A stretch of DNA of 29,789 nt, taken from NCBI GenBank assembly GCA_016935765.1, contig JAFGQG010000049.1:1-29789 (forward strand), written 5' to 3'. Positions 7,936-29,352 of this stretch are shown piece by piece (position 1 is the stretch's first letter; every line of letters starts with the position of its first letter). A program made the position numbers and the translations under genes. This stretch comes from a bacterium (GTDB lineage Bacteria; UBP14; UBA6098; JAFGQG01). Under the pieces are notes generated by a model. The model was not told the DNA's origin. It did no database searches and saw only the letters and a program-made list of their open reading frames with translations.

Positions 7936-7939
7936 AAAA

Positions 7940-8014
7940 TGGCCCCAACGGGATTTGAACCCGTGTTACCGGCTTGAGAGGCCAGCGTCCTGAGCCGGGC
8001 TAGACGATAGGGCC
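7940..8014 (-). tRNA. tRNA-Glu (anticodon CUC)
   Basis: The reverse complement reads GGCCCTATCGTCTAGCCCGGCTCAGGACGCTGGCCTCTCAAGCCGGTAACACGGGTTCAAATCCCGTTGGGGCCA. It has a 7-bp acceptor stem, D-arm TCGTCTAG...CAGGAC, anticodon stem CTGGC/GCCGG with loop CTCTCAA (anticodon CTC) and T-arm GGTTCAAATCC. CCA is not encoded. Confidence 0.8.
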
Positions 8015-8227
8015 ATTTTCAATCAAATCAAATGTCGAAGAAAAAGATAACCATATATAATTTGATGTCAATTTAAATTTATCTCTTTCTAACTAAATAA
8101 AGTTCAACAAACCCTTAGAATATCCAATATTTTTCTTGACTAATAACCTTTATCAATTAGTTTATTGACAATTTTTTTTTATTATTTATTTTAATATCTT
8201 GTTATAAGGTATGATTCAGGAGGAGAA

Positions 8228-13314: not shown

Positions 13315-14626
13315 AAGAGACCAGCATAAATTAAAACTCACTACTTCTGTCGTTTATAAGAAGTTCTCTTTAAGCTATAAAGTAGTGCTTTTAATCGCAT
13401 TTATCTTGTTGATCGCGTTCTTTTTCTATTATACTGAAAACGTTCGAAGTCAAATTATCGAATACAACAAGCGTATCGTCAATGTTTATGCGAGGTTATG
13501 GACATCTGCGGTGGCGCAGACCGTGGGTGGTGAAGAGCTGAATATTATCTTCGAGGAGATAATTTTAAAGTGTGATTTCCCCATGGTTTTCACAAACGTT
13601 GAAGGCCAGGTTACGAATTTCAGGAATCTCTCCATAGATCCTAGCGAGGTTAATCAGGATAACATTGAGAAACTGAACAAGGAACTTGATGATATTAAAA
13701 AGCAAAACAAGCCTGTACCTATTTATTTGGGCGATACCAGAGAGATATTAGGCTACATCTATTTCGGGGAATCTCGTTTCATACGGTGGCTGAGACTTCT
13801 GCCGATATTCGAAGTAATACTCTTAAGCGTTTTCATAATAATTGGATTCGCTATCTACGGGCGGATCAAGTCCTATGAACAGCAGAATATCTGGTTGGGG
13901 ATGGCACGTGAAACCGCTCATCAATTAGGAACGCCGCTTTCTTCTTTACTGGGCTGGATAGAGCTTCTCGAGGCAAGACTGGCTGAAATGGAGAAAAATT
14001 GTGAAATAGAACTCGCTAAGGTTGACCAGGATTCCAAAACCATGTCCCCCTACTATATTCTCGATGAGATGAAAAATGACATTGAATTATTGAACCGAAT
14101 CGTCGTCCGTTTCGGAAAGATCGGCTCAATACCCGATATCGAGGATATCGACGTAAACACTATAACCCAAGAGGTAGTCCAGTACCTGAAAGAGCGTCTT
14201 TCCCCCTTGAGAGAATACATCCAAATGACCGAGAGGTATACTAAGCTACCAAAAGCGCGGGGTAATTCATATTTACTTCGCTGGGCGCTCGAAAATCTTA
14301 TAAAAAATTCTATTGAAGCGATTGACACCCGGGAAGGAAAAATAAGCGTATCAACGAGGGTCGATCTGGAAGGTGAAAAAGTATGCATCATTGTGACGGA
14401 TAATGGGAGGGGTATACCATCAAAGGCGCAAAAAGACATATTCGCGCCCGGTTTTACTACAAAAAAACGCGGATGGGGATTAGGTCTTTCCCTGGCTAAA
14501 AGAATAGTCGAACAACAACAGAACGGCAAACTGTACCTTCTCGAAAGCAAGTCAGGTGAAAAAACAACTTTTGTAATAGCATTGCCTATCAAAGAAGGAG
14601 AGGAAATAAAAGATGAAGTCGACTAA
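13307..14626 (+). CDS. Sensor histidine kinase, PorY-like (two TM helices flanking a ~120-aa periplasmic loop, HisKA + HATPase_c)
   Basis: TM1 VVLLIAFILLIAFFFYY and TM2 ILLSVFIIIGFAIY. H-box ARETAHQLGTPLSSLLGW. N-box/G-boxes LENLIKNSIEAI, VTDNGRGIP, GWGLGLSLAKRIV. TTG start at 13307 overlaps the serS stop. The 3' end overlaps the next gene by 14 nt. Confidence 0.85.
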   Translation: MAKRDQHKLKLTTSVVYKKFSLSYKVVLLIAFILLIAFFFYYTENVRSQIIEYNKRIVNVYARLWTSAVAQTVGGEELNIIFEEIILKCDFPMVFTNVEGQVTNFRNLSIDPSEVNQDNIEKLNKELDDIKKQNKPVPIYLGDTREILGYIYFGESRFIRWLRLLPIFEVILLSVFIIIGFAIYGRIKSYEQQNIWLGMARETAHQLGTPLSSLLGWIELLEARLAEMEKNCEIELAKVDQDSKTMSPYYILDEMKNDIELLNRIVVRFGKIGSIPDIEDIDVNTITQEVVQYLKERLSPLREYIQMTERYTKLPKARGNSYLLRWALENLIKNSIEAIDTREGKISVSTRVDLEGEKVCIIVTDNGRGIPSKAQKDIFAPGFTTKKRGWGLGLSLAKRIVEQQQNGKLYLLESKSGEKTTFVIALPIKEGEEIKDEVD

Positions 14627-16178
14627 AAAAATACTATGGGTAGATGACGAAATAACCCAGTTAAGACCGCATATATTCTTTCTCGAGGAGAAAGGGTATA
14701 AAGTCACTCCCGCGTCAAATGGCAGGGATGCCATCGCGATGCTTGAAAAAAACGATTATGACATAGTTCTTCTGGACGAGATGATGCCGGGGCTGGATGG
14801 ATTATCAACTCTTGAAGAGATGAGAAAGATCGATGCCTTTATCCCCGTTATTATGATAACTAAAAGCGAGGAAGAAGGACTTATGGAGCAGGCGATCGGA
14901 AAGGAGATCACGGACTACCTCATTAAGCCGGTAAACCCGAAGCAGATTTTGCTTTCCCTTAAACGACTGTTCGAAACGAGACAAATAGTGCAGGAAGAGA
15001 TCGTTAAAAAATATACAACAGAATACAGAAGATATTCAGTTGAACTGACCTCCATTTCAACCCCTGAAGGCTGGTTCGAACTGGCAATGTGGATTGCGGA
15101 TTGGAACGTTATTTTCGACAAGCATCCCAACCTCGGTCTTACGGAATCGCATAAGGATTTCACACGCGAATGCAACGTTGAATTCGGTAAATACATTGAA
15201 GGGAGCTATGTCAATTGGATATACGACGACCAGAGACCAACGATCTCAACAGATATTGTAAAGAAAAAAATGGCTCCCATAATGAGAGACGGCAAGAAAG
15301 CACTTCTTATGGTTATCGACTGCTTAAGGTTGGACCAGCTTTTGACAGTAAAAGGTTTATTGAACCAATATTTCGAACTGGATCTTGAACTCTATTTCTC
15401 TATTCTTCCGACAGCAACCCCATTCTCCAGGAACGCTATATTCAGTGGTCTGTTTCCCCTGGAACTCGCAAGGAAGTATCCCGAGCTATGGAGCCAGGCT
15501 TTCGCCGATCCCCAAAGCAGAAACAGGTATGAACACCAGCTGCTGGACAAGCAGTTAGCGAAACTTGATGTTGAAATCAAGGGAGATACTAAATACATAA
15601 AAATACTTGATCCTCAGGAAGGAGAATTCTTCCTGAAACACCTGCAAACTTATGCATCAGCGCCCCAATCATCAGTGGTCATTAACTTTCTCGATATTCT
15701 CGCTCATTCCAGATCAAGCTCCGACGTGATACAGGAGATCTCCCCGGACGAAAGGGCTTACCGAACGATAATGAAAACATGGTTCTCTAACTCCCCATTC
15801 TTCGAAGCGCTTAAAATATTATCTAAAAAAGACGATATTAAAATTATCATAACCACCGATCACGGCAGCACTATCGGACTTCGCGGAACAAAAGCTTATG
15901 GAGGAAAGGATACATCCCCATCCCTTCGGTATAAATATGGTAATAATCTCAACGCTGAAGCCAAGGACGCACTTATTATCAGAGACCCCAAGGAATATAA
16001 ACTCCCTGATTTCAACATGTCAACAACCTACATAATCGCCAAGGAAGATTACTTTTTCGTATATCCTTCAAACTTTGGGAAGTACGAACAGGAGTATAAA
16101 AACAGCATTCTCCATGGAGGCATTTCGCTAGAGGAGATGATAATTCCGGTAATGGTCCTGACACCTAGAAGCACCTAA
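14613..16178 (+). CDS. PorX-like response regulator: CheY-type receiver fused to a PglZ (alkaline-phosphatase-superfamily) domain
   Basis: RBS AAGGAGAGG. REC domain with ILWVDDE, phospho-acceptor in IVLLDEMMPGLDG and K in YLIKPV. The C-terminal ~380 aa carry PglZ-type motifs MVIDCLRLDQ, LPTATPFSRNAIFSG, IIITTDHGS and HGGISLEEM. The 521-aa length and REC-PglZ architecture match P. gingivalis PorX. Confidence 0.85.
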   Translation: MKSTKKILWVDDEITQLRPHIFFLEEKGYKVTPASNGRDAIAMLEKNDYDIVLLDEMMPGLDGLSTLEEMRKIDAFIPVIMITKSEEEGLMEQAIGKEITDYLIKPVNPKQILLSLKRLFETRQIVQEEIVKKYTTEYRRYSVELTSISTPEGWFELAMWIADWNVIFDKHPNLGLTESHKDFTRECNVEFGKYIEGSYVNWIYDDQRPTISTDIVKKKMAPIMRDGKKALLMVIDCLRLDQLLTVKGLLNQYFELDLELYFSILPTATPFSRNAIFSGLFPLELARKYPELWSQAFADPQSRNRYEHQLLDKQLAKLDVEIKGDTKYIKILDPQEGEFFLKHLQTYASAPQSSVVINFLDILAHSRSSSDVIQEISPDERAYRTIMKTWFSNSPFFEALKILSKKDDIKIIITTDHGSTIGLRGTKAYGGKDTSPSLRYKYGNNLNAEAKDALIIRDPKEYKLPDFNMSTTYIIAKEDYFFVYPSNFGKYEQEYKNSILHGGISLEEMIIPVMVLTPRST

Positions 16179-16230
16179 ACTGAACCTTTCACAAATTTCC
16201 GTCGACAAGCTGAATAAAGAATAAAAATAG

Positions 16231-16677
16231 ATGATTGCAGATTTAGGAACTATAAAAAACGAAAACGAATCCATAACCAATTCCCCGGAAGAGACCATAG
16301 ACCTTGGAATAAAGTTGGGAACCGGGCTTCAAGGCGGGGATGTTGTAGCGTTATACGGGAAACTTGGCGCTGGGAAAACTACGTTCGTAAAAGGCATTTG
16401 TGAATTGTTGAAAACCGAACCGCCATCCAGCCCGTCTTACGTGATAATCAACAACTATGTCGGCAGGGAAAATGTTTTCCACATCGATCTGTATCGCATA
16501 AATTCAGACGAAGAATTATATGATCTTGGTCTTGAGGAATACCTGTACAGCGACAGTGTATGTTTGGTAGAATGGGCTGAAAAGGCAAAATCCATCTTGC
16601 CAGAAAAGAGAATCGAAGTATATTTCGAAGTCGTTTCGAGAGAGACCAGAAAAATAAAAATATTAAAATATAGTTGA
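16231..16677 (+). CDS. tsaE: tRNA t6A37 threonylcarbamoyladenosine biosynthesis protein TsaE
   Basis: 148 aa. Walker-A VVALYGKLGAGKTTFVKG, downstream hydrophobic strand and VCLVEWAEK, the usual TsaE/YjeE layout. Confidence 0.8.
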   Translation: MIADLGTIKNENESITNSPEETIDLGIKLGTGLQGGDVVALYGKLGAGKTTFVKGICELLKTEPPSSPSYVIINNYVGRENVFHIDLYRINSDEELYDLGLEEYLYSDSVCLVEWAEKAKSILPEKRIEVYFEVVSRETRKIKILKYS

Positions 16678-16692
16678 CAGAAATGAGAATAT

Positions 16693-18753
16693 ATGACAAA
16701 ATACTTCATTAAACAGCCTGAAGCATTAATTATCTTTTTACTTCTGACGGTTTTCTTTTCAGCCAGCGTCTTTGCAATAAACCGTACAGAACCGATTGTT
16801 GTTTACGATGACGGTGAGGAAATAGAACTGGTAACTCCCCCTGTATCTATGGAAAGCAAGCTGAACGAGATTGAGAGAAGTAGTATAAATACCAATGAAA
16901 TAAATATATGGGTATTTTTTACTGATAAGGGCATATTTACTAAAGAAAATTATATTGACAAAAAATCAGAAACATGGTATAACTTATCAGAACGCAACAT
17001 GATCAGGCGGAGAAGGCTCGGTTATGACAAGGTCAATTTCACGGATATCCCGATACCTGGGAGCTATATTGAAGAAATAACGGGGCAGGGCGCAAACTTA
17101 AGGTATTCATCAAGATGGCTGAATGCTGCTACCTTTGAGATCGACCCTTCGATACTCCGCGACATCGCTGACCTCCCTTTCGTCAGGGATATCAGGAGCG
17201 TGAAAGTTAGCAGACAAATACTTGACAAACCACAGCGAAAAGTGAAGAAATATAAGGAGGGGTACGATGATAGCAACGTATATGGTGGGTCATATTACCA
17301 GCTATCAATAATGGGAGTTCCAGAGCTTCACCAGGCAAATCTGCACGGAGAAGGGGTGCTCATCGGTATATTCGATACTGGGTTCCTTACATCGCATAAC
17401 GCGTTCGACAGCATAAACATCATCTATACGTGGGATTATATCCAGGGGGATACAGTAGTCGATAACGAGGAGGGTGATGCGTATAATCAGCACAACCACG
17501 GGACAAACACACTGGGGACGCTTGCCGGGTTCTTTGAAGGCGAGCTGGTAGGTCCGGCATACAAAGCGGACATTGCTATCTTCAAAACGGAACAGGTCGA
17601 TGCCGAAACGGTCTGGCAGGAGGAAGACAGGTGGGTGCGTGCGATAGAGAAAGCTGAAAGCCTCGGTGTGGATATCATCTCCAGTTCTCTGGGATACGGA
17701 ACATCTGATGGGGACGATGGATACACATACATGGACATGGATGGGAATACCGCGCTGACTACCATCGCTGCGGATATCGCGGCCTCGAAGAATGTGCTGG
17801 TAGTAACCGCAGCAGGGAATGAGAGACGAAACTTCTGGCATTACATTATTGCGCCCGGTGATGGCGACAGCGTCCTGACAGCCGGCGCTATGGATTCTGC
17901 CGGTACTTATGCAGCGTTTTCCTCACCAGGACCAACTTACGATGGCAGGATCAAACCCGACCTTTCAGCACTCGGAATGAACGTTGTCTGCGCCTCCCCC
18001 GAGGACACTAACGCTATTACCCGCTCGAACGGGACTTCGTTCGCGACCCCTCTTCTCGCTGGAACCGCCGCGCTCGTCCTCCAGCACAGCTTCAGCTCCG
18101 ACACGCTCACCGCCATGGAACTGCTCGATACGCTAAAATCGACCGCCGACCAGTGGTACGAACCCGATAACGACTTCGGCTGGGGAAGACCGCATTGCCT
18201 TCTCGCGACAGGGAACGCGGGGGGAGTATATGGCATCGTTAAAGACGCATCGAACGGTTTGCCCATGGAAGAAGTAGCAATCCACTTCCACTCAGATACA
18301 CTCTACGGTCAGAAGTACACCGATGAGAGGGGCAGGTTCCTCATACCTGTCGAAAATCCGGGCTTATACACATTTTGTTTCTCGATGCCGGGGTATTCGC
18401 CAGCAACCAGGACGGTGACAGTAACCCGGAACGAAAAGGTGGAATTCCACATAGATATGGCAGTACCTGTGGATGAGAAGATATTCATATATCCCAATCC
18501 ATTCTCCGACAGCCTGGTGGTGGGGGTTTACCCTGACAGTGTCGATACGATACCGCAGGATGATCTCTCGATGTGGGTGTGGAACGCCGCCGGGCAGTTA
18601 GTATTCGAAAAGCACGTGGACATTCAGTACGTGAACCCATACATCTGGCGAACGAAGACGGGCTCGGGCAGGAAACTGGGAAGCGGGATCTACATTATTT
18701 ATGCGGAATACAACAAGTTCACGAGGAAAGAGAAAATCGCGTTGATAAGGTGA
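16693..18753 (+). CDS. Secreted subtilisin-family (S8) serine protease with CarbopepD_reg-like domain and T9SS type-A C-terminal sorting domain
   Basis: Signal peptide. Catalytic triad contexts VLIGIFDTGF (Asp), HGTNTLGTLAG (His) and GTSFATPLLAGTAALV (Ser). GIVKDASNGLPMEEVAIHF looks like a carboxypeptidase-regulatory-like beta-sandwich. The last ~90 aa (IFIYPNPFSDSLVVGV...GIYIIYAEYNKFTRKEKIALIR) match the T9SS C-terminal domain pattern, YPNPF at the start and a basic residue-rich end. Confidence 0.9.
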   Translation: MTKYFIKQPEALIIFLLLTVFFSASVFAINRTEPIVVYDDGEEIELVTPPVSMESKLNEIERSSINTNEINIWVFFTDKGIFTKENYIDKKSETWYNLSERNMIRRRRLGYDKVNFTDIPIPGSYIEEITGQGANLRYSSRWLNAATFEIDPSILRDIADLPFVRDIRSVKVSRQILDKPQRKVKKYKEGYDDSNVYGGSYYQLSIMGVPELHQANLHGEGVLIGIFDTGFLTSHNAFDSINIIYTWDYIQGDTVVDNEEGDAYNQHNHGTNTLGTLAGFFEGELVGPAYKADIAIFKTEQVDAETVWQEEDRWVRAIEKAESLGVDIISSSLGYGTSDGDDGYTYMDMDGNTALTTIAADIAASKNVLVVTAAGNERRNFWHYIIAPGDGDSVLTAGAMDSAGTYAAFSSPGPTYDGRIKPDLSALGMNVVCASPEDTNAITRSNGTSFATPLLAGTAALVLQHSFSSDTLTAMELLDTLKSTADQWYEPDNDFGWGRPHCLLATGNAGGVYGIVKDASNGLPMEEVAIHFHSDTLYGQKYTDERGRFLIPVENPGLYTFCFSMPGYSPATRTVTVTRNEKVEFHIDMAVPVDEKIFIYPNPFSDSLVVGVYPDSVDTIPQDDLSMWVWNAAGQLVFEKHVDIQYVNPYIWRTKTGSGRKLGSGIYIIYAEYNKFTRKEKIALIR

Positions 18754-18865
18754 ATCTAATATTAGGATTAACCACAGGGGCACAGAGACACAGAGAAAAA
18801 ACCAATTTACAAAAACGAAATAAATAAATCACAAAAAACAAATAAAACTACCTCGTCAATTGTGT

Positions 18866-18887
18866 AACCAGCAGTAGCTGGTTTTTA
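18866..18887 (+). terminator. Rho-independent terminator-like hairpin (AACCAGC-AGTA-GCTGGTT + TTTTT) inside a 35-nt element that recurs at 29501..29534
   Basis: 7-bp stem, 4-nt loop, then a T5 run, ~110 nt downstream of the S8 protease stop. Confidence 0.55.
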
Positions 18888-18986
18888 GGCAATCTCATCA
18901 AGTAAACTTAAAGGAAAAACAAGAAATACCTGTGGTTTGATAATAAATAATATTGGAAATAGTGATTTAATCGAGGGTGATCAAAA

Positions 18987-19649
18987 ATGAACATTAAACG
19001 AGCATTTATTTATATCTTCGAAGACAAGCAGTGGTTTGGGAAGTTCATCATCGGGATGCTCCTGTGCCTTGTCCCTTTTATCGGTTGGTGGATCATTCTC
19101 GGATATCTTGCTGATATACTCCAGAGAATAATTAAGGGGGCTGATATTCCCCTGCCTGAGTGGGATGAAATAGGCACTAAATTCGTTAAGGGTTTTCTCC
19201 TTGCGGTGGGATTATTCGCCTATTCGATACCCGGTGTTATTCTTTCCTTTATCCCGTGTTTTGGTAATTTGCTGTCCACGTTATATTATATAGGTCTTGG
19301 TCTATACCTCCCCTGGATTTACTTAACTTATTCACAGGAGGAGAATCTTGGCTCTATATTTAATTTTGAGAAGGGATTCAGTTTTATGAAGGACAATTTT
19401 ATAAATGTACTTATCATATTCATTTTAAAAAATATCCTGGGTTTATGTGTAGCTATAGTCTGCGCAGTGCCTGGAATAATTGCAGTAGTACTATTCGTAA
19501 AGGAATTCTGGGTATTCGGGATACTGTTCGGGTTAGCAACATTAGTTCTTGGAATTGCGGGTTCGGTTTATTTGTATCTGGTTAGCATGCGATTGTATGG
19601 GGAGGTTTATTTCCAATACATCAAAAAAACTGAATCAGGAGCTATTTAA
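18987..19649 (+). CDS. Integral membrane protein, DUF4013-like (tentative)
   Basis: 220 aa with 4-5 predicted TM helices. The N-terminus FIYIFEDKQWFGKFIIGMLLCLVPFIGWWIILGYLADILQRIIKGADIPLPEWDEIG resembles the DUF4013 N-terminal pattern. That assignment is from memory only. Confidence 0.5.
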   Translation: MNIKRAFIYIFEDKQWFGKFIIGMLLCLVPFIGWWIILGYLADILQRIIKGADIPLPEWDEIGTKFVKGFLLAVGLFAYSIPGVILSFIPCFGNLLSTLYYIGLGLYLPWIYLTYSQEENLGSIFNFEKGFSFMKDNFINVLIIFILKNILGLCVAIVCAVPGIIAVVLFVKEFWVFGILFGLATLVLGIAGSVYLYLVSMRLYGEVYFQYIKKTESGAI

Positions 19650-19784
19650 AATCTGCCTGGAAATATTTGAAAATTTTATGGGTTTAATCAAATTCTATAA
19701 TATTTCATCCCCAAAGGGATTCTCGTTTATTTATTCTATCAGCAGGGATGCAACCCACTCGAACGGGGTTTGACCCTTGACTGC

Positions 19785-20111
19785 TCAGGGCTCAAATACA
19801 TTATTTGCATAGGTATCTTTAGAGATTACACCCTCTTTTCTCATATTACCTGGCTTTGACATTTGTTCAAGGAGGATTTTGCGCCAATCTTCTCCATTAG
19901 GCATAGTATTGTCGAACCTTTTAGCTATTCGGCGAAAAATATTTTCAAGCCCATTATAGAACGAGTGAAGAAACATCGACAACGAACTTAATTCTATGAA
20001 ATCTGGTGTCTGAATTCTGACTTTTTCCAGTAAATCACTGTATTTACTGAACAATTCATCAATTCTTCCAAGCTCAAATGTGATTTCATCAACCAGTTCT
20101 TTATGCTTCAT
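19785..20111 (-). CDS. HEPN-like (HI0074/DUF86-type nucleotidyltransferase substrate-binding protein family) toxin partner of the adjacent MNT
   Basis: The ORF track extends to 20183, but Met at 20111 (MKHKELVDEITFELGRIDELF...) overlaps the upstream MNT stop by 11 nt. ~108 aa, all-helical, with an ENIFRRIAKRFD segment. The MNT-then-HEPN gene order is that of HepT/MntA-type modules. Confidence 0.65.
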   Translation of the reverse strand: MKHKELVDEITFELGRIDELFSKYSDLLEKVRIQTPDFIELSSLSMFLHSFYNGLENIFRRIAKRFDNTMPNGEDWRKILLEQMSKPGNMRKEGVISKDTYANNVFEP

Positions 20112-20391
20112 AAAGTCTGATACCTTCTTTCTTAATTTTCTCTTCAAAATCAGTCGAAATATAATCCAAAGCAACCAAATCAACTTTCTGTCCCACTATC
20201 GATGATATTTCCGCAACCGTTTTAAAATAAGACCTGGGTGAAATACCCCTTATTGCCAGATCAATATCAGAATTTTCAGTAACTGTCCCTTTCGCCATGG
20301 AACCAAACAGGATAATTTCTTTACACCCTATTGAAATAAGATAATCAGTAGCCTTTTTAATTTTTTTATCGATTTTCTTTACGTTTTCCAT
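20101..20391 (-). CDS. Minimal nucleotidyltransferase (MNT, Pol-beta superfamily), antitoxin-like
   Basis: 96 aa. IILFGSMAKGTVTENSDIDLAIRG is the canonical G[GS]x9-13 D x D motif, and a third acidic residue sits in VDLVALDY. Confidence 0.85.
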   Translation of the reverse strand: MENVKKIDKKIKKATDYLISIGCKEIILFGSMAKGTVTENSDIDLAIRGISPRSYFKTVAEISSIVGQKVDLVALDYISTDFEEKIKKEGIRLYEA

Positions 20392-20605
20392 TCTTTAACT
20401 ATCACTAAGCGTAAGGTTTTTAACAAAATTAGATCGTTTAAAACAATTTATAGTATAAATACAAATCTTGCAAGTAAAAAAGCGTGGTGAAACAACTGGT
20501 ACTAAGTTATTACAATTTTAGAAAGTCTTCTTTTTGACTTTGTTCAGGTTTTGGATATATTTCACTCTATGTTTTCCCTATCCCTTTTATCACCCGCTTC
20601 AAGAT

Positions 20606-21283
20606 TTATGGCTTTCCCGCGACTAAATACAGATCATCCTGATGAATATCGTCATGGACAACTTCACTAAATTTTATCTCAAAGCCGGCTGATTCCACAT
20701 CCGCCCTTATTCCCCCAGGTAAACCGATATACCGTCTTGCGATACCACCAACTACCAAGCACCTCGTATTCATGTCGAAGTTGGATTTGACGGATTCCTC
20801 CTTAGGATCCCCGCACATCGACATCAAAATGAATAATCCCCCCTCTTTCAGCACTCGATACGCTTCACGGAAGAACAGCTTTCTATCCTCCCCGATTATG
20901 CAATGGGAACATGCTATATCGGTTACTATATTGAAGCTTTCACTCGAAAACGGCAAGGAGTTAACGTTCCCCACGAGGAAATCAGCCTTTAACCTTTGGG
21001 AGACAGCTTTTTCTTTTGCCCATGATACTGCCGTCGGAGAGATATCGATACCGAACACTTCGAAGCCTTTTCCAGCGAGAGGCAAAGCAACACTGCCATC
21101 TCCACACCCTAACGCAAGCAGGTTTCCTGAAGCAGTCTTGGATTCCCGATTGAAAACAGAATTCAGGAACCGGAGAGCTGTTTGCGTATTCATCTCGTTT
21201 TCATCGCCTCCCCAACCGAGCGCGCTGCTCTCTCTCAACCGCCTGTAAATCTTGTCGTGTCCCGGGTAATCAGTTTTCCACAT
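20606..21283 (-). CDS. Class I SAM-dependent methyltransferase
   Basis: 225 aa. Motif I LLALGCGDGSVALPLA, acidic motif II FGIDISPTAV, motif III-like FNIVTD. Confidence 0.8.
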   Translation of the reverse strand: MWKTDYPGHDKIYRRLRESSALGWGGDENEMNTQTALRFLNSVFNRESKTASGNLLALGCGDGSVALPLAGKGFEVFGIDISPTAVSWAKEKAVSQRLKADFLVGNVNSLPFSSESFNIVTDIACSHCIIGEDRKLFFREAYRVLKEGGLFILMSMCGDPKEESVKSNFDMNTRCLVVGGIARRYIGLPGGIRADVESAGFEIKFSEVVHDDIHQDDLYLVAGKP

Positions 21284-21444
21284 TTTTAAACTCGTTCGTT
21301 TATTCTTCTCAACTTTTTTAAAATAAATCTCTTTCCTCGATGGAAGTAAATTAATATATTCAAAAGCTGTAAATAGAATTTATTTCATCAATTTCAATGT
21401 AAGATACAGACCTTAAGCAAACAAGAAAAAAAGTACTAAGTATT

Positions 21445-21915
21445 ATGCCCGACTCACCATATAGAACAAGAAACTTCTTTGCCGATCACTGGCTTTTACT
21501 TGCGAACGGGGTTTTTACGCTCCTTTTAGTCCTGATAATTCTCGCCCCATACCTGAGTTCTGCAGGTTCTAAGCTTTCGGGGCTTATCTACTATCTTTTC
21601 AAACCCACCTGTCACCAGGAACCAGCGAGGTCATATTTTATATTTGGGAAACAACTCCCTGTATGTGCAAGGTGTACAGGGATTTACGTAGGCATGTTCA
21701 TAGGCGGCATTCTTTTTGCCATCTTTAGAAAAAAGGTGAGAAAACCGCTTCCATTGATCGCTTTTATCATACTGATTCTTCCGCTGTGGATCGATGGCTT
21801 AGGTCAGACATTCAAATTCTGGAACACTGGAAACCTCTTCAGAACTCTGACTGGATTGGTATGCAGTATCGCGGTTGTATTCTTTGTGTATCCGTATATT
21901 GATGAGAGAGTGTAG
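21445..21915 (+). CDS. DUF2085-like membrane protein
   Basis: 156 aa with 4 TM helices. CHQEPARSYFIFGKQLPVCARCTGIYVG is the DUF2085-type CHQ...R...CxRCTG motif. Confidence 0.6.
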   Translation: MPDSPYRTRNFFADHWLLLANGVFTLLLVLIILAPYLSSAGSKLSGLIYYLFKPTCHQEPARSYFIFGKQLPVCARCTGIYVGMFIGGILFAIFRKKVRKPLPLIAFIILILPLWIDGLGQTFKFWNTGNLFRTLTGLVCSIAVVFFVYPYIDERV

Positions 21916-22067
21916 GAGTTGAGGGTTAAAGGGGAAACATAAGCAATTAGTCAGTGGGCAATTAGCTGTTAGCAATTATCAATGAAAAGAAGGAAACACT
22001 GCAATTCTGAATAATCTTCGTCTCACTTGGTAGGGTACTGGTGAATGTTTTCATAGAAAACTTCTAA

Positions 22068-22088
22068 AACCAATTATATTAATTGGTT
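22068..22088. promoter_or_regulatory. Perfect 9-bp inverted repeat AACCAATTA-tat-TAATTGGTT (candidate operator)
   Basis: Read directly: AACCAATTA (22068-22076), spacer TAT, TAATTGGTT (22080-22088). It sits in the 520-bp non-coding leader upstream of the 22468 ORF. Confidence 0.5.
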
Positions 22089-22403
22089 AGATGTACCTGT
22101 ACCGCCTGGATGGGAAGGGGGAAACAAAAGCAATGAAAAACAAAAACATAGCACACGGATGACACGGATTGAGCGGATAATCACGGATAAAGAAAAAAAA
22201 TACAAAAACGCCACTAAAACACCAAAACACTAAATTACTCGAAAAGGACTTAAATCCTGAAAAACCATAATATACGCCAAACCATCGTAGATGGTTAATA
22301 ATTGTAGCATTAGAGTCTCTTATACAAACATCCTTGTATTAGGATGGATAGGTTTATGGCTATCTGCCAACCCGGGGAATAGGGATGACCTTGAAGATTA
22401 AGG

Positions 22404-22432
22404 TTGACTTTTTGTTCATTTTATACTAATTT
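22404..22432 (+). promoter_or_regulatory. Candidate sigma70-like promoter (TTGACT-17-TAATTT) for the 22468 ORF
   Basis: TTGACT at 22404-22409, a 17-nt spacer, then TAATTT. It lies ~36 nt upstream of ATG 22468. Sequence inspection only. Confidence 0.25.
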
Positions 22433-22467
22433 AATAATTGAAATATAACAAAACGGGGAATATCCTT

Positions 22468-22878
22468 ATGGGTATTAGTGAAGAAATAGAATTAAAAAAA
22501 ATTCTATCACAGGCTGAAAAGGATTTATTAAAAGCTGAAAAGCACTTTGACGCAAGCAGATACGACCTCGCATGTCATCTTTCAGAGAAGGCTGTAGAGG
22601 AAATCATCAAGGGATTTCTAAAATCCGAAGGTATTGCATTCTTTACCAACCAACCTTTGCCAACGCTTTTTCAGAAAGCATCCACAGCGGATAAGAGATT
22701 TTCTTCGATGGAAACCTTCGCTTTCACCTTCGAGCAATTTCGAAAAAAAACTTCTACAGAAAAACCCGAAAAAAATGATAGTGAGAGAGAGAGTTCTACA
22801 AAAACCGAAGCAATGAACGTTATCAACTTTGCGCACAAGATAATCGGGTTAGTTAAGCAAATATTAAAAGAGTATTAA
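22468..22878 (+). CDS. HEPN-like helical protein (PF05168-type), hypothetical
   Basis: The ORF track starts at 22438. Met 22468 (MGISEEIELKK...) gives 136 aa. The N-terminal half SQAEKDLLKAEKHFDASRYDLACHLSEKAVEEIIKGFLKSEGIAF resembles the first two helices of HEPN domains. I could not find a clear Rx4-6H motif, hence the low confidence. Confidence 0.4.
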   Translation: MGISEEIELKKILSQAEKDLLKAEKHFDASRYDLACHLSEKAVEEIIKGFLKSEGIAFFTNQPLPTLFQKASTADKRFSSMETFAFTFEQFRKKTSTEKPEKNDSERESSTKTEAMNVINFAHKIIGLVKQILKEY

Positions 22879-23084
22879 TTCATCCAAAATAACCTTTCAA
22901 ATATTTGGGTTTTCGATAATAAAAACAGGTTGTATGGGGTAATCATGACGGTGTCATCAATATGGAACTGAAACTATATTACGGTGGGACCAATCCAAAA
23001 CAAAAATTTTTCTTTATTTTTTGTAAAAAATTATTATAATAACAGATAGCGAAAAGAAACTTAATTATAAAACCAAAACCAATT

Positions 23085-25829
23085 ATGGAAACAAAAGATT
23101 TCGAAAAAGGACCGTTTCTTATCACTGATGTGGGCAGTACAACCACGAAAGCATTTCTATTTGAACCAGGTAAAAAATGGGGTTATTACCGGGAGGAGGG
23201 ACCGACGACCGTAGAGAAACCCTATGAAGATGTTACCATAGGGGTTTTGAACGCTGTTTGGGAACTTGAGAAAACCACTGGAAGAAAGTTATTGGAAAAC
23301 GGGAAGCTGTGTATCCCGTATTTATCTACTTCCAGCGCCGGTGGCGGTTTAGCGATGGTTGTCGCGGGATTGATCCGGCAGATAACAACGAAAAGCGCTG
23401 AACGGGTCGCCCTTGGTGCTGGCGCGATCCTTCTCGATATTATCGCTCTCGATGATGGGAGAACACCTTACAAGAAGATAGAAGCCCTTAAAAATGTGCG
23501 CCCCGATATGCTGCTTCTATCGGGCGGTTTCGACCATGGCTCGCTGTCCGGACCGGTTTTCATCGCTGAAATAATATCCCAGGCTGAGCTGCATCCCAAG
23601 TTAAGCAAGCAGGCAAAATTGGACCTCATCTTCGCGGGTAATGTAGATGCAAGGGAGTGGGTTGAGAAAACCATGACTGGTAATTTCGTGATACATCACG
23701 TGCCCAACATAAGACCTGAAGGAGACAGGGAGAACCTCGAACCGGCTAGAGACAGGATTCATGAGTTGTTCACACAGCACGTAATGTCGCACGCTCCGGG
23801 ATATGAAAAGCTGAAGCGCTGGGTGTCTGCGCCAATACTACCCACACCCGCCGCCTTTTCAAAGCTCCTCGCATCCATATCCGAGGACCTTGACAAGCGA
23901 ATTCTAGCGATAGACATAGGCGGCGCGACGACCGACATCTTCACCGCGGAAGGCGGGGACGTGTTTAGAACCGTCAGCGCGAACCTCGGCATGAGTTACA
24001 GTATCATGAACGTTATAAGGAGCAGCGGATTAAGCACAATAAACAAAATGCTTCAAGCAGACATTTCCGATACTGACCTTCTCGATAAAATAGGCAACAA
24101 ACACATAAATCCAACCAGTCTCCCTGAAAAAGTTGAGGACGCTCAGATCGAGCAAGCCGTAGCGACTGTAGCGATTCGTGAAGCGTTAAAAGAGCACCTG
24201 TCAGTACTGAAGGGTTTGAGTTTCAGCCTGGGCCAGGAGGAACTGAACCTGGGAAATTTGAAGCCACAGGAGCTTAAGTGGCTCGATTCGGAAGAATTTC
24301 AGCTTGAAGGTTATGACGTCATTATAGGAAGCGGAGGCATCCTGTCTCATTCACCGAGAGAAATCGCCGCGGAGATCCTTCTCAATGGATTGCAGCCGCG
24401 GAATGTAGTTTCGCTTGCCGTAGATTCTTCTTTCATGTTCCCCCAACTCGGGGTACTCTCCCAGGTTGCGCCGGAGCTGGCTAAGGAACTGTTCTACGAG
24501 ATCGGGTATATCAAGCTTGCCACCGCTGTATCTCCAGTAACAGGCGACAAACCCGGAAATAAAATATTGACAATTCGTGAAATTAATGACAATAAAAGAG
24601 CTGAAGACATAGACTTGAACGCGGGGGAGGTCAGGATGGTCCCCGTCGGGAAGGACGCGAAATTTTCGGTGAGAAGCGGGGAATTGAACAATAAAACTCA
24701 CGAAATCCACGCTGAAAGCTCCCTTTTCGGTTTGATCCTTGATGGAAGGATACGCCCAATTAATAAAAAGCCCCACCTGTTTGAGAATGTCGAATACGAT
24801 TTGAAGAAGCGCAAGATCGAGGCGATGTCTGAAACCAGTTTATATCGCGGGGATATTGAAATAAAGCGCGAATTAGCTATACCGGGCGAGGTCTATGTTA
24901 AAGCTGGGCAGGAGGTTTCATCAGATACTGTGGTTGCGAAATGCGTAAAAGCCTTCCTCAGGCCATTCTTTCTCGACATAGCCAGTGTGTTGAACATTTC
25001 TCCGGAGAAGCTGAAGGAGGTTTTGTCAAAAAAGATAGGCGACGATGTTCATTCCGGGGAGGTAATTGCTCAGACTTCTGGTATATTGGGGAAGAAATTC
25101 CGTTCTCCCGTGTCCGGAACGGTCGAGAAGATATTGCCCGATGGTTCGATAGTAGTCCGCGAGAAACCTGAGTATGCTAAAGAAGTTTACATCATAGATG
25201 TCGCAAGAGAGTTATCCGTAAAGCCTTTTGAAATAAAACCCTACTTGAAAGTACAGGTTGGTCAGGAAGTTGGAAAGACCCAGCATGTTGCTGCCAAGAT
25301 GACGGTGAACGAGATGAAGTTCGCCAGGTCCCCGATGAGAGGGATCGTTACCGATATCAAAACCGAGGAAGGATTGGTAGTAATAGAGCCTCTCCTGGAG
25401 GAGCTGGAACTTTTTGCCTGGCTTCCCGGGAAAGTAAGCGAGGTATTCCCGGGAGGGTGTTCTATAAGGAACAGGGGCACGATTATTCAGGGAACCTGGG
25501 GTTTGGGTGGGGAGGCCTATGGAAATCTGAAGTTCAGCAAACCTGAACCCAACTGCATTTTCGTGAGTGAAAGAGTCGATTCTGATTTGCTGGATTCTCT
25601 AAAAAGAGAAAGGGTTTCTGGACTGATAACCGCGGGTGTTCATCTGGCGCATTTCTGGAAGGATGAACCGGAATTCACTGTAGTTTTGCTCAAGGGCTTC
25701 GGGGATAAAAGCTTCGATACAGAGACAATTGAAATTTTAAGGGCGAAGGAGAACTGTCTTGCTTTATTGGATGGAACGACTCAGTTGAGGGTAGGCGTGA
25801 AGAGACCGAAGATCATAATACCTGGGTAA
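23085..25829 (+). CDS. GlmL/MutL-like ASKHA-fold ATPase (N-terminal ~470 aa) fused to a ~440-aa C-terminal region with repeated barrel-sandwich-hybrid-like segments
   Basis: 914 aa. N-terminal phosphate-1-like motif FLITDVGSTTTKAF, a second one LAIDIGGATTDIFTA, and the adenosine-motif-like DVIIGSGGILSHSP. This duplicated RNaseH-like layout is as in glutamate-mutase-associated GlmL. The C-terminal half has repeated lipoyl/biotinyl-type hybrid-barrel signatures: GEVYVKAGQEVSSDTVVAKC, RSPVSGTVEKILPDGSIVV, KVQVGQEVGKTQHVAAKM, RSPMRGIVTDIKTEEGLVVIEP. Confidence 0.7.
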   Translation: METKDFEKGPFLITDVGSTTTKAFLFEPGKKWGYYREEGPTTVEKPYEDVTIGVLNAVWELEKTTGRKLLENGKLCIPYLSTSSAGGGLAMVVAGLIRQITTKSAERVALGAGAILLDIIALDDGRTPYKKIEALKNVRPDMLLLSGGFDHGSLSGPVFIAEIISQAELHPKLSKQAKLDLIFAGNVDAREWVEKTMTGNFVIHHVPNIRPEGDRENLEPARDRIHELFTQHVMSHAPGYEKLKRWVSAPILPTPAAFSKLLASISEDLDKRILAIDIGGATTDIFTAEGGDVFRTVSANLGMSYSIMNVIRSSGLSTINKMLQADISDTDLLDKIGNKHINPTSLPEKVEDAQIEQAVATVAIREALKEHLSVLKGLSFSLGQEELNLGNLKPQELKWLDSEEFQLEGYDVIIGSGGILSHSPREIAAEILLNGLQPRNVVSLAVDSSFMFPQLGVLSQVAPELAKELFYEIGYIKLATAVSPVTGDKPGNKILTIREINDNKRAEDIDLNAGEVRMVPVGKDAKFSVRSGELNNKTHEIHAESSLFGLILDGRIRPINKKPHLFENVEYDLKKRKIEAMSETSLYRGDIEIKRELAIPGEVYVKAGQEVSSDTVVAKCVKAFLRPFFLDIASVLNISPEKLKEVLSKKIGDDVHSGEVIAQTSGILGKKFRSPVSGTVEKILPDGSIVVREKPEYAKEVYIIDVARELSVKPFEIKPYLKVQVGQEVGKTQHVAAKMTVNEMKFARSPMRGIVTDIKTEEGLVVIEPLLEELELFAWLPGKVSEVFPGGCSIRNRGTIIQGTWGLGGEAYGNLKFSKPEPNCIFVSERVDSDLLDSLKRERVSGLITAGVHLAHFWKDEPEFTVVLLKGFGDKSFDTETIEILRAKENCLALLDGTTQLRVGVKRPKIIIPG

Positions 25830-26139: not shown

Positions 26140-29100
26140 TTGATGAGAAAGTTATTGTTATGTTCATTATTAACGGTGATGCTGTGCTCACTTCTATATG
26201 GTTTTGATCCTGCTTCACCCCCTACCGACCGGGCTGAATATGATCGATGGAAATTGGAGCTTTTAGAGAGAATAGCGCCTCCGCGAGCGGCGTTCCCCAT
26301 GGATTTCTCCGTGGACAACGGCTATGTTGACGTTATTATGGAGACTGCTTCCGGGGCTGGCTCCTTTGAGCAGGGGGGAGACCCATCGGGATCCGGAAGT
26401 TACCTGAAACTAACCTATTACTACCCATCTGTGCCATGGTCGTATTCCATCTACAAGATCGATGGCCATACACCAGAACAGCAGTACAGAACCGGGCCTG
26501 ATTGCACTTTGATAACAGCGCCCGACGAGATTTTCGTGACTTCCGACGAGATCATTCGAACGATATGGAACGACAGGCATGGAGTCAAGATAATTCAGGA
26601 TTTGAAATGTGTCAGCCTGGGCAGTGACCCCGGAGATAACGAACAGGTAAAATATACAACCAAGTTCATACCTACCGATCGTGATTCGCACAATTGCGGC
26701 TGCCTGGTATATTATGACACGAAGCTTGCTTCCAATGACGGAGCTCCCATCTCGACTTCCTACGGTTATTCGGGCATGGCGGAAATCTGGTTCGCGGATG
26801 AAGTTCCCGCTGTCTGGAGGGCTTACGAAGTAGGTTACCCGCCAGCGCCGAGCGATCTGCAGGCTCTCGGAATTTTACGCGGTTTCGAAGCGACTTACCC
26901 CGACGTTTTCTGGTGCGGCAGATGGCCGATATCATACAGCAACGGTTGGGACGACCTTTACTGGATAGAAGATGCGGTCGGAGACTTCGGATACGACACC
27001 GCAACCATGGTGAAGTGGTATCCAAGGTGGGTTCACCCGGGAGATACTTTAGTTTACACCACTTATTATGGCATCGGGGAGCTTTCCGAGGAAATCTCGA
27101 TTTACCATACTCCGCCAACTTTATGGTCTGATTGCGCCAGTCCGCGTCCGAATCCGTTCAGCATAGACGTGCTCATTTCGAACGGAGGCGAAGCTACCGC
27201 AAGCGGTGTTTCTGTGATTATCGACCTGACCGGGACGGGCCTGGAATTGGCTGAAGGTTATGACCTCATCATCGATATTGGCGACCTGGTCGGTTTCGGA
27301 GGCAGCGAAGTCGCAACATGGCATATCGTTGTCCCGCCTGGGCTTTACGATACAACCGTATGTTATACGATCGCATTGGTTTATGAGGGCTCTGATCCCA
27401 TAATCGACACCTTCTGCATTTACCTCCCCGAGCTCGCTCCCGGTCCCTACGGAATGCTCATCGAACCCCTTGAAGGAGCAAGAACCACCTGCGCCGACCA
27501 GCAAGTTGTAAACCAATTCCACGTGGACTTCGGGATCGATACATCTTCGATCAGGTTCGTCATCGAAGCAGATTTATATACGATGGACGATCCGGAACTC
27601 TCGATAATCAACGACAGCTTCCTGGTGTTCCAACCCTCAACCGATTATATCGATGGATTTACGTACACATGGGGGGTGGCATCCTTCCTGGATACCGCCG
27701 GGTGTCCCATACTCGGTCTGGGCGGCACCTTCACTCCCGACCTGTCCGGGCCGGTTGCATCCAACGAATACCCGGAAAACGGCGCTATCATTGCAACCAC
27801 AAACATACCGGAATTCACAGTGGACATCGAAGACGCGGTTACCCCAGTCGATGAAAGCACGATAGAGCTCGAAGTCAATGGCATTGTTTACGACATGACA
27901 CATCCAGCTCTAACCTGGGATGGCGCAACGCTTCACTTTTCACCCGCTGACGCCGGAATAGAAATTGAAATTGGCGATACCTTCGATATATGTCTGAATG
28001 CTGCCAACGATATGCCTTCGGACTACTGTGAAGGCAATACCCTTCAGGACGCCCCTTATTGCTGGACTTTCAACGTCAACGTGGTCGAGCTCTACCTTCC
28101 TGACACCACCGCGTACATTGGGGACAATATCCTGGTACCCATTTATATCGAAGAGGTTGACCAGTACAATATCACCAGCTTCACCTTGATCATCGACGCC
28201 AACCCGGATGTTCTCACTCCTCTCGGAATAACCACCGACGGCACGATCGTTGCCCCCTGGGCTGGAGACCTGACCGTAACCATCGATGGCGGTACTATAA
28301 TTATCGAGGGCAATGGTCCTACCCTGAGCGGCTTCCCGGTTTTCTTCTTCATCGAATACATGGTGAATACCACCGGAAGCGAAGGCTCGTTCACGAGGCT
28401 CGAGTTCAGCGAGGCAACCTTCAACGATGGCGACATCACCTCGGTGCCGGAGGACGGATTCCTTATCGTACTCTGGACCAACCCGCAGTGGGTAGTTGAC
28501 CTTGTATTTTCACCTGACGCTTCAGCGCTGTCTCATACTATAACTTTCGGAGCTTCCGGTCACGCTGACGACGGCTTCAACCCGGGACTCGACCTCATCA
28601 CACTGCCACCAGTAGGGAACATCCATGCCTACTTCCCGCTTGCTGACCCTGATAACCCGCACATTGCGAGGCTTCAGAGAGACATCAGGTACTCCGAAGC
28701 TCTACCCATAATCTGGGAAGCGGTAGTGGATATCAACCCGGACGCCGATCCGTGGACGGTTACATGGCGACCGGAATACCTCCCCGACGGCAGGTTCGAG
28801 ATATACGAAGAGGACGGCGCGATCGTCGATATGCACTATAACAACTCCTATTCATCGAACGGTGACGTTAGCGTTTTCGTTAAGTTTTCGCACCCTGAGT
28901 TAGCTATCCAGAACGTCGTATTACCCGAGGGCTGGAACCTGGTATCCTTCCCGTACATACCGACTGGCGAGATCTCCTTCCAGGAACTGCTCCCCGGTGT
29001 GGTATCCGACGGCTACTGGTATAATGGTGAAACAAGAGTGTACGAAGTAAGGGAATACCCTGAAGCAGGAAAGGGTTACTGGGTTTATGCCGCTGAACCG

Positions 29101-29352
29101 GTTGACACGAGAATTGCCGGAATGGCTGTGGATGAGTACACCATCAGCGTATATCCCGGCTGGAACCTCATCGGTGTACCTTATTCTGAAACGGGAAGCA
29201 TCTCGGGAACCGGCACTTTCTACTGGTACAATCCCGAGGGCAGCGGATACGAAGACCCGGCGGGAACACTCAACATGTGCTATGGATACTGGTACTTCAC
29301 CACGGAACCCGGATTGCTTCACGCTGACGGATTCTCCGTACCGGCGAGATAG
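26140..29352 (+). CDS. Large secreted multidomain protein (CARDB-like and cohesin-like beta-sandwich modules) with C-terminal tandem GWNL[IV]S/GYW module
   Basis: 1070 aa. RBS AGGAGG 7 nt upstream. Signal peptide MMRKLLLCSLLTVMLCSLLYGF. The segment FSIDVLISNGGEATASGVSVIIDLTG..LELAEGYDLIIDIGDLVGFGGSEVATWHIVVP is CARDB-like. The segment YIGDNILVPIYIEEVDQYNITSFTLIIDANPDVLTPLGITTDG... is cohesin-like. The last ~150 aa hold LPEGWNLVSFPY...GKGYWVYA and VYPGWNLIGVPY...GYWYF, the same module as the C-terminus of 64..2064. Internal antisense ORFs (26672..27118, 27121..27522, etc.) are GC-driven artefacts. Confidence 0.8.
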   Translation: MMRKLLLCSLLTVMLCSLLYGFDPASPPTDRAEYDRWKLELLERIAPPRAAFPMDFSVDNGYVDVIMETASGAGSFEQGGDPSGSGSYLKLTYYYPSVPWSYSIYKIDGHTPEQQYRTGPDCTLITAPDEIFVTSDEIIRTIWNDRHGVKIIQDLKCVSLGSDPGDNEQVKYTTKFIPTDRDSHNCGCLVYYDTKLASNDGAPISTSYGYSGMAEIWFADEVPAVWRAYEVGYPPAPSDLQALGILRGFEATYPDVFWCGRWPISYSNGWDDLYWIEDAVGDFGYDTATMVKWYPRWVHPGDTLVYTTYYGIGELSEEISIYHTPPTLWSDCASPRPNPFSIDVLISNGGEATASGVSVIIDLTGTGLELAEGYDLIIDIGDLVGFGGSEVATWHIVVPPGLYDTTVCYTIALVYEGSDPIIDTFCIYLPELAPGPYGMLIEPLEGARTTCADQQVVNQFHVDFGIDTSSIRFVIEADLYTMDDPELSIINDSFLVFQPSTDYIDGFTYTWGVASFLDTAGCPILGLGGTFTPDLSGPVASNEYPENGAIIATTNIPEFTVDIEDAVTPVDESTIELEVNGIVYDMTHPALTWDGATLHFSPADAGIEIEIGDTFDICLNAANDMPSDYCEGNTLQDAPYCWTFNVNVVELYLPDTTAYIGDNILVPIYIEEVDQYNITSFTLIIDANPDVLTPLGITTDGTIVAPWAGDLTVTIDGGTIIIEGNGPTLSGFPVFFFIEYMVNTTGSEGSFTRLEFSEATFNDGDITSVPEDGFLIVLWTNPQWVVDLVFSPDASALSHTITFGASGHADDGFNPGLDLITLPPVGNIHAYFPLADPDNPHIARLQRDIRYSEALPIIWEAVVDINPDADPWTVTWRPEYLPDGRFEIYEEDGAIVDMHYNNSYSSNGDVSVFVKFSHPELAIQNVVLPEGWNLVSFPYIPTGEISFQELLPGVVSDGYWYNGETRVYEVREYPEAGKGYWVYAAEPVDTRIAGMAVDEYTISVYPGWNLIGVPYSETGSISGTGTFYWYNPEGSGYEDPAGTLNMCYGYWYFTTEPGLLHADGFSVPAR

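Follow-up and report, generated by a model that had tools for sequence, protein, structure and literature searches.

Domain organization of the 914-residue protein

The DNA examined here, referred to as the window, is the whole of a 29,789-nucleotide stretch (contig JAFGQG010000049.1, positions 1 to 29,789) from a bacterium of the UBP14 lineage. Its forward strand carries a complete open reading frame (ORF) for a protein of 914 amino acids (aa), and NCBI has an identical protein on record. The protein is very probably a natural fusion of a conserved two-part module, A and B, and not the glutamate mutase accessory protein GlmL after which its homologues are named. Part A (residues 1-560) is an ASKHA ATPase with a small beta domain, and part B (residues about 586-914) comprises two hybrid barrels followed by a swivel domain. 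The features of the gene are the following.

23085..25829, +: complete ORF with ATG start, 914 aa, encoding A and B fused in one chain
23115..24506, +: ASKHA (actin-fold) ATPase domain of the GlmL/MutL family, residues 11-474
23127..23150, +: phosphate-1 motif D15-V-G-S-T-T-T-K22, from conservation in 85 fused and split A sequences
23913..23936, +: phosphate-2 motif D277-I-G-G-A-T-T-D284, from conservation in the same 85 sequences
24327..24350, +: adenosine-binding motif G415-S-G-G-I-L-S-H422, from conservation in the same 85 sequences
24507..24749, +: small all-beta domain, residues 475-555, from DSSP of the model; the C-terminal extension of split gene A
24750..24839, +: variable linker, residues 556-585, where A and B are joined; poorly conserved and modelled without secondary structure
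24840..24962, +: first part of B (residues 586-626), made up of beta strands and the leading hybrid-motif hairpin GEVYVKAGQEVSSDTVVA
24963..25166, +: barrel-sandwich-hybrid unit 1, residues 627-694, with the RnfC_N match and the internal duplication
25185..25391, +: barrel-sandwich-hybrid unit 2, residues 701-769, with the NQRA_N match and the internal duplication
25428..25823, +: swivelling beta/beta/alpha domain, residues 782-913
25773..25808, +: conserved loop G897-T-T899-Q-L-R902-V-G904-V-K-R907-P908, a candidate partner or ligand site

The Pfam MutL/GlmL family PF13941 aligns with residues 12-470 over profile positions 2-446 of 450 and scores 329.7 bits (E = 3.7e-98), above its gathering cutoff of 27 bits over the whole domain. 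An earlier note, made from the letters alone, had placed the ORF exactly and had described it as a GlmL-family ASKHA core with about 440 extra residues; 444 residues follow domain 11-474 by count only after residue 470. The motifs that it quoted are present in the translation, namely DVGSTTTKAF (15-24), DIGGATTDIF (277-286) and GSGGILSHSP (415-424), as are its four barrel segments KAGQEVSSDTVVA (607-619), SPVSGTVEKILPDGSIVV (674-691), VQVGQEVGKTQHVAAKM (723-739) and SPMRGIVTDIKTEEGLVVIEP (749-769).

The small beta domain closes with a conserved D553-x-R555-x-x-P558 and matches weakly the N-terminal barrel of FliI (E = 0.015). In the start of the B module, R595, G601 and G608 are conserved; the leading hairpin and both hybrid-barrel units together occupy residues 586-777. 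The full-length AlphaFold2 model, built from an alignment of 65 sequences, reached a predicted local distance difference test score (pLDDT) of 84.2 and a predicted template-modelling score (pTM) of 0.79. A separate model of residues 471-914 reached a pLDDT of 89.4.

Fused and split forms

A homology search with the 914-aa protein returned at least 8000 proteins. The best 120 homologues all measure 840-980 aa, have been named automatically 'glutamate mutase L' or 'TIGR01319 family', and come from Zixibacteria, WOR-3, Eisenbacteria and other groups. The idea that the architecture is unusual had to be abandoned with this number of homologues: it is common and mis-annotated. A HMMER search with the C-terminal module alone (residues 570-914) gave about 1,150 clusters at 50% identity, and among the matches listed the module is either the end of a protein of 830-1040 aa or a stand-alone protein of 340-480 aa. 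Public names for the stand-alone B are 'hypothetical protein' and, occasionally, 'biotin carboxyl carrier protein'.

Scanning one genome per species yielded 377 confirmed stretches. Eighty-three loci were studied in detail, consisting of the best 79 of these 377 and four homologue loci that were fetched separately. The module is split in 60 of the 83, where A and B are neighbouring genes that frequently overlap by a few bases, and fused in 22. Split gene A encodes about 600-630 aa and aligns to residues ~11-560 of the 914-aa protein, while split gene B encodes about 371-480 aa and aligns to residues ~594-913, so that the break between the two falls at linker residues 556-585. Bacterial split forms were found in Nitrospira, Latescibacterota, Brocadiia and other Planctomycetota, Binatia, Armatimonadota, Cloacimonadota, Gemmatimonadota, Fibrobacteraceae and Bacillota. 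Archaeal ones occur in Bathyarchaeia, Nitrososphaerota and a metagenome-assembled genome (MAG) of Thermoproteota (isolate 'Kor4').

The N-terminal half of the 914-aa protein shares about 44% identity with split A and about 27% with authentic GlmL. With authentic GlmL as the root of a neighbour-joining tree, both fused clades come out monophyletic, yet they lie apart from each other; the clade of the window holds 16 sequences and the second one seven, from Cloacimonadota, Delongbacteria and UBP11. Because the two fused clades are separate in this tree, the sequences suggest that A and B were fused at least twice, independently. Fusion that has recurred speaks strongly for joint action of the two parts.

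A chimeric assembly, or a frameshift joining two neighbouring genes, could also produce a protein of this kind, and the halves are indeed separate genes in most lineages. However, independent full-length homologues of 840-980 aa number more than 100 and derive from a wide range of assemblies and sources, the fused forms fall into two coherent clades, the model is continuous and confident (pTM 0.79), and the protein in NCBI is identical. An assembly artefact was ruled out on the homologues, the fused clades and the model, and the probability left to it is vanishingly small.

Several variations of the split form were observed. In Bacillota (Symbiobacterium, Fermentithermobacillus and relatives), two divergent A-B pairs stand in tandem at one locus in the order A1-B1-F2-A2-B2, with B1 of about 450-480 aa and B2 of about 373 aa (L017, L018, L019, L020, L022, L023, L028, L029 and L039); the species-level record of L023 is labelled Symbiobacterium thermophilum. 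One genome, CP062796.1, has an additional A-B pair at a second locus, L015. Split B proteins carry an extra C-terminal tail of about 75 aa, KOW/NusG-like at an E value of only 0.08 for the NusG model, as in L057 (6418-7539, B residues ~300-373). The 914-aa protein lacks the tail and stops directly after the R-P-x-I-I-P motif.

The split operon and its membrane proteins

Split loci show the recurrent gene order F6-F2-A-B-F3a-F3b-F4-F5. The operon begins with F6, a small transmembrane protein, and F2, of about 115-150 aa. F3a, which follows B, is DUF6754 (E = 1e-118), and after it come F3b with about seven transmembrane segments, the bitopic F4, and F5 with about five transmembrane segments. F3, F4 and F5 are all present in 36 of the 60 split loci, and at least one partner family is present in 48. 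At L062 a distant fused gene lies in a tight cluster, F3a-F3b-F4-F5-AB, which links the fused forms to the membrane partners of the split ones. In most lineages the client is probably the membrane complex of four proteins (DUF6754, F3b, F4 and F5) whose genes adjoin A and B.

DUF6754 is the sole partner with an assignment, and neither Pfam nor NCBIfam assigns F3b, F4 or F5. Sequence and profile searches of the PDB gave no relatives of DUF6754, F3b, F4 or F5, save for an FN3-like N-terminal domain, and none of the ATPase. No paralogy was found between F3a and F4 or between F3b and F5 (hhalign probability below 1%). Apart from these membrane proteins, clustering of the ORFs over the 83 loci revealed no neighbour family that is conserved.

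Two further resemblances were observed among these proteins. F3b shows a weak likeness to MnhC, a subunit of the Mrp antiporter (E = 2.5e-4, with a score well under the cutoff). Longer DUF6754 proteins bear the FN3-like N-terminal domain behind a signal or transmembrane segment (profile match 3mpc_A, E = 0.012), as in L057 (7536-8750; alignment A6). Given this domain, part of the membrane complex may be exposed outside the cytoplasm.

The presence of bitopic and polytopic membrane proteins in the split operon would also suit an actin-like scaffold or cytomotive protein at the membrane, which would organise the neighbouring membrane proteins in the manner of FtsA or PilM. Against this role, sequence groups the family with GlmL and hydantoinase-type proteins, and the fused protein has no evident membrane-targeting helix. 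A scaffold is consequently considered improbable.

Comparison with GlmL and B12-dependent systems

The likeness to GlmL/MutL lies in the N-terminal 470 residues, which fall in PF13941, and in the three ASKHA nucleotide motifs common to both. The curated models of this group give low scores. The GlmL equivalog NF040745 scores 202 bits against a cutoff of 475, the ornithine degradation model NF040744 (Or-4) 200.3 bits against 600, and TIGR01319 141.9 bits against 204.05; split A, with 174.3 bits, is likewise below the last of these. Authentic glmL products from a plasmid collection have 461-462 aa, align to residues 11-470 only with 26-28% identity, and are encoded in glmS-glmL-glmE-methylaspartate ammonia-lyase clusters. 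In contrast, the 914-aa protein is twice as long, possesses beta, hybrid-barrel and swivel domains that are absent from true GlmL, and belongs to a family not seen beside glmS or glmE, whose split forms are linked to membrane proteins. It is not a glutamate mutase accessory protein.

A true reactivase could still serve a glutamate mutase, an aminomutase or another adenosylcobalamin enzyme encoded elsewhere. GlmL and Or-4 are the top NCBIfam models (E about 1e-59), and the combination of ATPase and swivel recalls the reactivases of diol and glycerol dehydratases. The scores, however, are far under every curated cutoff and identity to authentic GlmL is low, as given above. The 20 window ORFs scanned, all of at least 132 aa, include no mutase or B12 gene, as had been claimed for the vicinity, and none was found in the Pfam-annotated loci L001-L004; the genetic linkage is to membrane proteins instead. 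A flavodoxin-like small subunit or a B12-dependent dehydratase was likewise absent from the 20 window ORFs and from the Pfam-annotated conserved neighbour families. A function in B12 enzyme reactivation is thus very improbable.

Hybrid barrels, swivel domain and residue conservation

Two Pfam models narrowly passed their cutoffs in part B, RnfC_N (PF13375) with 27.0 bits at residues 650-685 (cutoff 25.6) and NQRA_N (PF05896) with 25.8 bits at 716-760 (cutoff 25). These matches and the fold seen in the model agree on hybrid barrels in the 914-aa protein. Compared with the PDB, the family profile matched NqrA at E = 0.02 and a lipoyl domain at E = 1e-3. Local alignment of residues 627-694 with 701-769 scored 81, against 24.6 ± 4.7 for shuffled sequences (n = 2000, z = 11.9, none as high). 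The two units are, by their sequences, a clear tandem duplication, and the barrel-hybrid signatures are more than chance. The leading segment (~600-620) resembles the repeat units weakly (z about 2.4). Of the three or more barrel segments proposed at first, two therefore stand as tandem units, and the third shows weak similarity only.

The proposal that the extra residues form hybrid barrels was correct for the barrels themselves and missed the last ~130 residues, which are a swivelling beta/beta/alpha domain and not hybrid barrels. With NqrA and RnfC the protein has in common the N-terminal barrel-sandwich-hybrid domain (PF05896, PF13375), without their Rossmann-like, SLBB or Fe-S domains; the full-length NqrA and RnfC models align over only ~50 residues and give 15-19 bits, where 246-450 are required. 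Foldseek matched the tandem hybrid-barrel array best to the tandem sandwich-barrel-hybrid-motif insertions of RNA polymerase beta' (Si3, Thermus NCD; E = 4e-4 to 1e-2). The fold repeat alone is common to them, template-modelling scores are very low, and the context is unrelated.

The swivel domain resembles the phosphohistidine domain of Enzyme I, PPDK, phosphoenolpyruvate (PEP) synthase and rifampin phosphotransferase, the swivel domain of diol dehydratase reactivase, as well as RraA and the small subunit of aconitase-X, and shares the swivelling beta/beta/alpha fold with the mobile domain of PEP-utilising enzymes. Its conserved loop, T-Q-x-R-x-G-x-x-R-P, is unlike that of PEP-utilising enzymes, in which the loop motif is G-G-x-T-S-H. 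Near the invariant T899-P908 loop lies a conserved turn, W-G806-x-G808-G-E810.

Conservation is strongest at the nucleotide motifs and in this loop. Over the 85 fused and split A sequences, the phosphate-1 motif is at least 93% conserved (invariant in alignment A1), the phosphate-2 motif 95-100%, and G415, G417 and G418 of the adenosine motif 98-100%. Across 93 fused and split B modules, T899, R902, G904, R907 and P908 are conserved at 100%. No conserved His or Cys column exists in these 93 modules (His at most 29%, Cys at most 22%). The richest Lys columns reach 66%, and those at the hairpin tips at most 43%.

Three carrier or cofactor functions were rejected on these columns. A biotinyl/lipoyl carrier would have a conserved modifiable Lys at a hairpin tip, where there is none, and PF00364 scores 13.3 bits of the 22.1 needed. 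An Fe-S protein was rejected for lack of a conserved Cys column, and a phospho-His carrier for lack of a conserved His and of any PF00391 match at E ≤ 1.

An ATP-dependent enzyme, such as a kinase, ligase or carboxylase similar to hydantoinase, oxoprolinase or acetone carboxylase, offers another explanation. The ASKHA domain would phosphorylate a small substrate, the hybrid-barrel/swivel part would act as a mobile carrier or lid, and the membrane proteins would form a transporter. Weak Hydantoinase_A matches (E = 5e-3 for the 914-aa protein, 5e-6 for split A) point in this direction, and the invariant Thr and two Arg of the swivel loop are residues that a site for an anionic or phosphorylated ligand might contain. 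On the other hand, the lack of a conserved His, Cys or hairpin-tip Lys rules out a phospho-His, a biotinyl/lipoyl carrier or an Fe-S site, there is no match to the Pfam PEP-utilizers, and no metabolic enzyme recurs beside A-B. An amidohydrolase follows the pair in Bacillota and in one proteobacterial MAG; an amidohydrolase-linked pathway was rejected after BLAST found the gene in four of the 83 loci, from one lineage. An enzyme of this type is therefore regarded as rather unlikely.

The neighbourhood of the fused gene in the window

In the lineage of the window the fused gene stands alone, flanked by AT-rich sequence (206 bp and 310 bp) in which promoter-like sites occur, and its neighbours differ among genomes. 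The HEPN-like ORF proposed upstream is confirmed (22438-22878, +; PF05168, E = 2e-12). It has no MNT partner, and the ~520 bp before it (together with the HEPN ORF, 21915-22878) hold no plausible ORF; Rfam gave no matches in this ORF-free stretch. The adhesin-like protein proposed downstream corresponds to an ORF of 1070 aa (26140-29352, +) with a hydrophobic, signal-like N-terminus and a sub-threshold cohesin match (E = 1.5e-4). The guanine-cytosine content of this ORF is 0.47-0.54, compared with about 0.36-0.44 for most of the window.

The remainder of the window is ordinary chromosome, with genes for SerRS, TsaE, RNase HII, LptF/G, a two-component system and an MNT/HepT pair. In the last of these, an MNT nucleotidyltransferase (20101-20391, -) overlaps a HepT-like gene (19785-20183, -), as is typical of type VII toxin-antitoxin pairs. 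A histidine kinase gene (13307-14626) adjoins that of a response regulator with a PglZ output domain (14613-16178, +), and the pair is kept in L001, the closest relative. The order in L001 is SerRS, histidine kinase, PglZ response regulator, TsaE, S8 protease, DUF2085 and the fused gene. Window positions 12043-25829 keep this order with extra genes inserted: S8 and DUF2085 are separated by DUF4013, MNT/HepT and an S-adenosylmethionine methyltransferase, and HEPN precedes the fused gene. The window also has one tRNA gene, tRNA-Glu(CTC), at 7939-8015 (-).

TsaE lies no more than a few kb from the fused gene or from A-B in the window (16231-16677), in L001 (4843-5289) and in some Bacillota, for example L017 (13288-13546) and L019 (11162-11638); these are six loci in one cluster, and the proximity is probably a coincidence. 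A role in defence was rejected, as PADLOC matched neither the fused protein nor B nor any of the membrane partners. A mobile-element gene was also rejected, with no phage match and plasmid records that hold only the canonical short glmL.

Proposed function of the A+B module

Taken as a whole, the explanation preferred here, with somewhat better than even chances, is that of a cytoplasmic two-protein module in a single chain, a reactivase-like ATP-driven engine that would act on a partner. Binding and hydrolysis of ATP in the ASKHA cleft would close the domain, and the closure movement would be passed to the arm formed by the hybrid barrels and the swivel domain. The invariant T-Q-x-R-x-G-x-x-R-P loop on this arm would grip the partner and then release it.

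The model for such mechanics is the alpha subunit of the reactivases, in which an Hsp70-like ATPase domain is combined with a swivel domain that releases the bound subunit on ATP hydrolysis (PMC7674605). DdrA and GdrA (PDB 2d0o, 1nbw) resemble the A+B module in that an ATPase and a swivel domain work as one unit. Hybrid barrels are absent from DdrA, however, and it shows no significant sequence similarity to the 914-aa protein. That the mechanics are specifically those of a reactivase is an analogy and is held only tentatively, as a doubtful part of the explanation.

Some observations weigh against an ATP-driven engine of this kind. The swivel domain is inserted within the DdrA chain, whereas the A+B module has it at the C-terminus or, in split forms, in protein B. 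The tree from which independent fusions were read is a quick neighbour-joining tree without support values. In addition, searches of the fused loci with hidden Markov models of the partner families gave no match within 6-8 kb in the window and in 20 of 21 loci, and the fused protein may act on something else, or alone.

The partner of the fused protein in the lineage of the window is not encoded nearby. The earlier note had taken the protein for a stand-alone ATP-dependent enzyme or chaperone, which fits the arrangement in this lineage only, since in most lineages A and B form a pair within a membrane operon. 'Stand-alone' probably describes the gene arrangement of the window lineage and not the ancestral biology.

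A bolder extension, which is unlikely on present evidence, would make A+B the cytoplasmic motor of an undescribed membrane machine, formed by DUF6754 and the three unassigned families, across many bacterial phyla and several archaeal lineages. An ASKHA ATPase would serve as its engine instead of an ABC, P-type, rotary or AAA+ one, and the stand-alone fusion would have arisen later as its soluble derivative. If A+B does move a substrate, or remodels or repairs the membrane complex, it would represent a new class of energy coupling at membranes.

Significance

The individual folds and the ATPase superfamily are already known. Their combination, in which a GlmL-family ATPase is followed by a beta domain, a pair of hybrid barrels and a swivel domain, in fused and split forms and together with DUF6754 and three unassigned membrane families, is apparently undescribed; the earlier note had supposed as much of the fusion of a GlmL-like core with barrels. 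No description of this architecture was found in the open-access literature on DUF6754, PF20539, PF13941, TIGR01319, 'glutamate mutase L' or ASKHA-swivel/hybrid-barrel.

The fusion provides Rosetta-stone evidence that ties the ATPase to an unannotated protein B of ~375 aa, and the split operon ties it to four membrane families without known function or solved relative. For mutagenesis, this widespread system offers clear targets in its ASKHA motifs and in the invariant T-Q-x-R-x-G-x-x-R-P loop. A candidate host for such studies is that of L023, labelled Symbiobacterium thermophilum, a cultured species, and Nitrospira is another.

The family is widespread, uncharacterised and systematically mis-annotated. 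Thousands of database proteins are called 'glutamate mutase L' without being accessory proteins of a mutase. This label implies, without support, a B12-dependent fermentation of glutamate in Zixibacteria, WOR-3, Eisenbacteria, Nitrospira, anammox bacteria and Bathyarchaeia, and can distort the metabolic reconstructions that are made from metagenomes.

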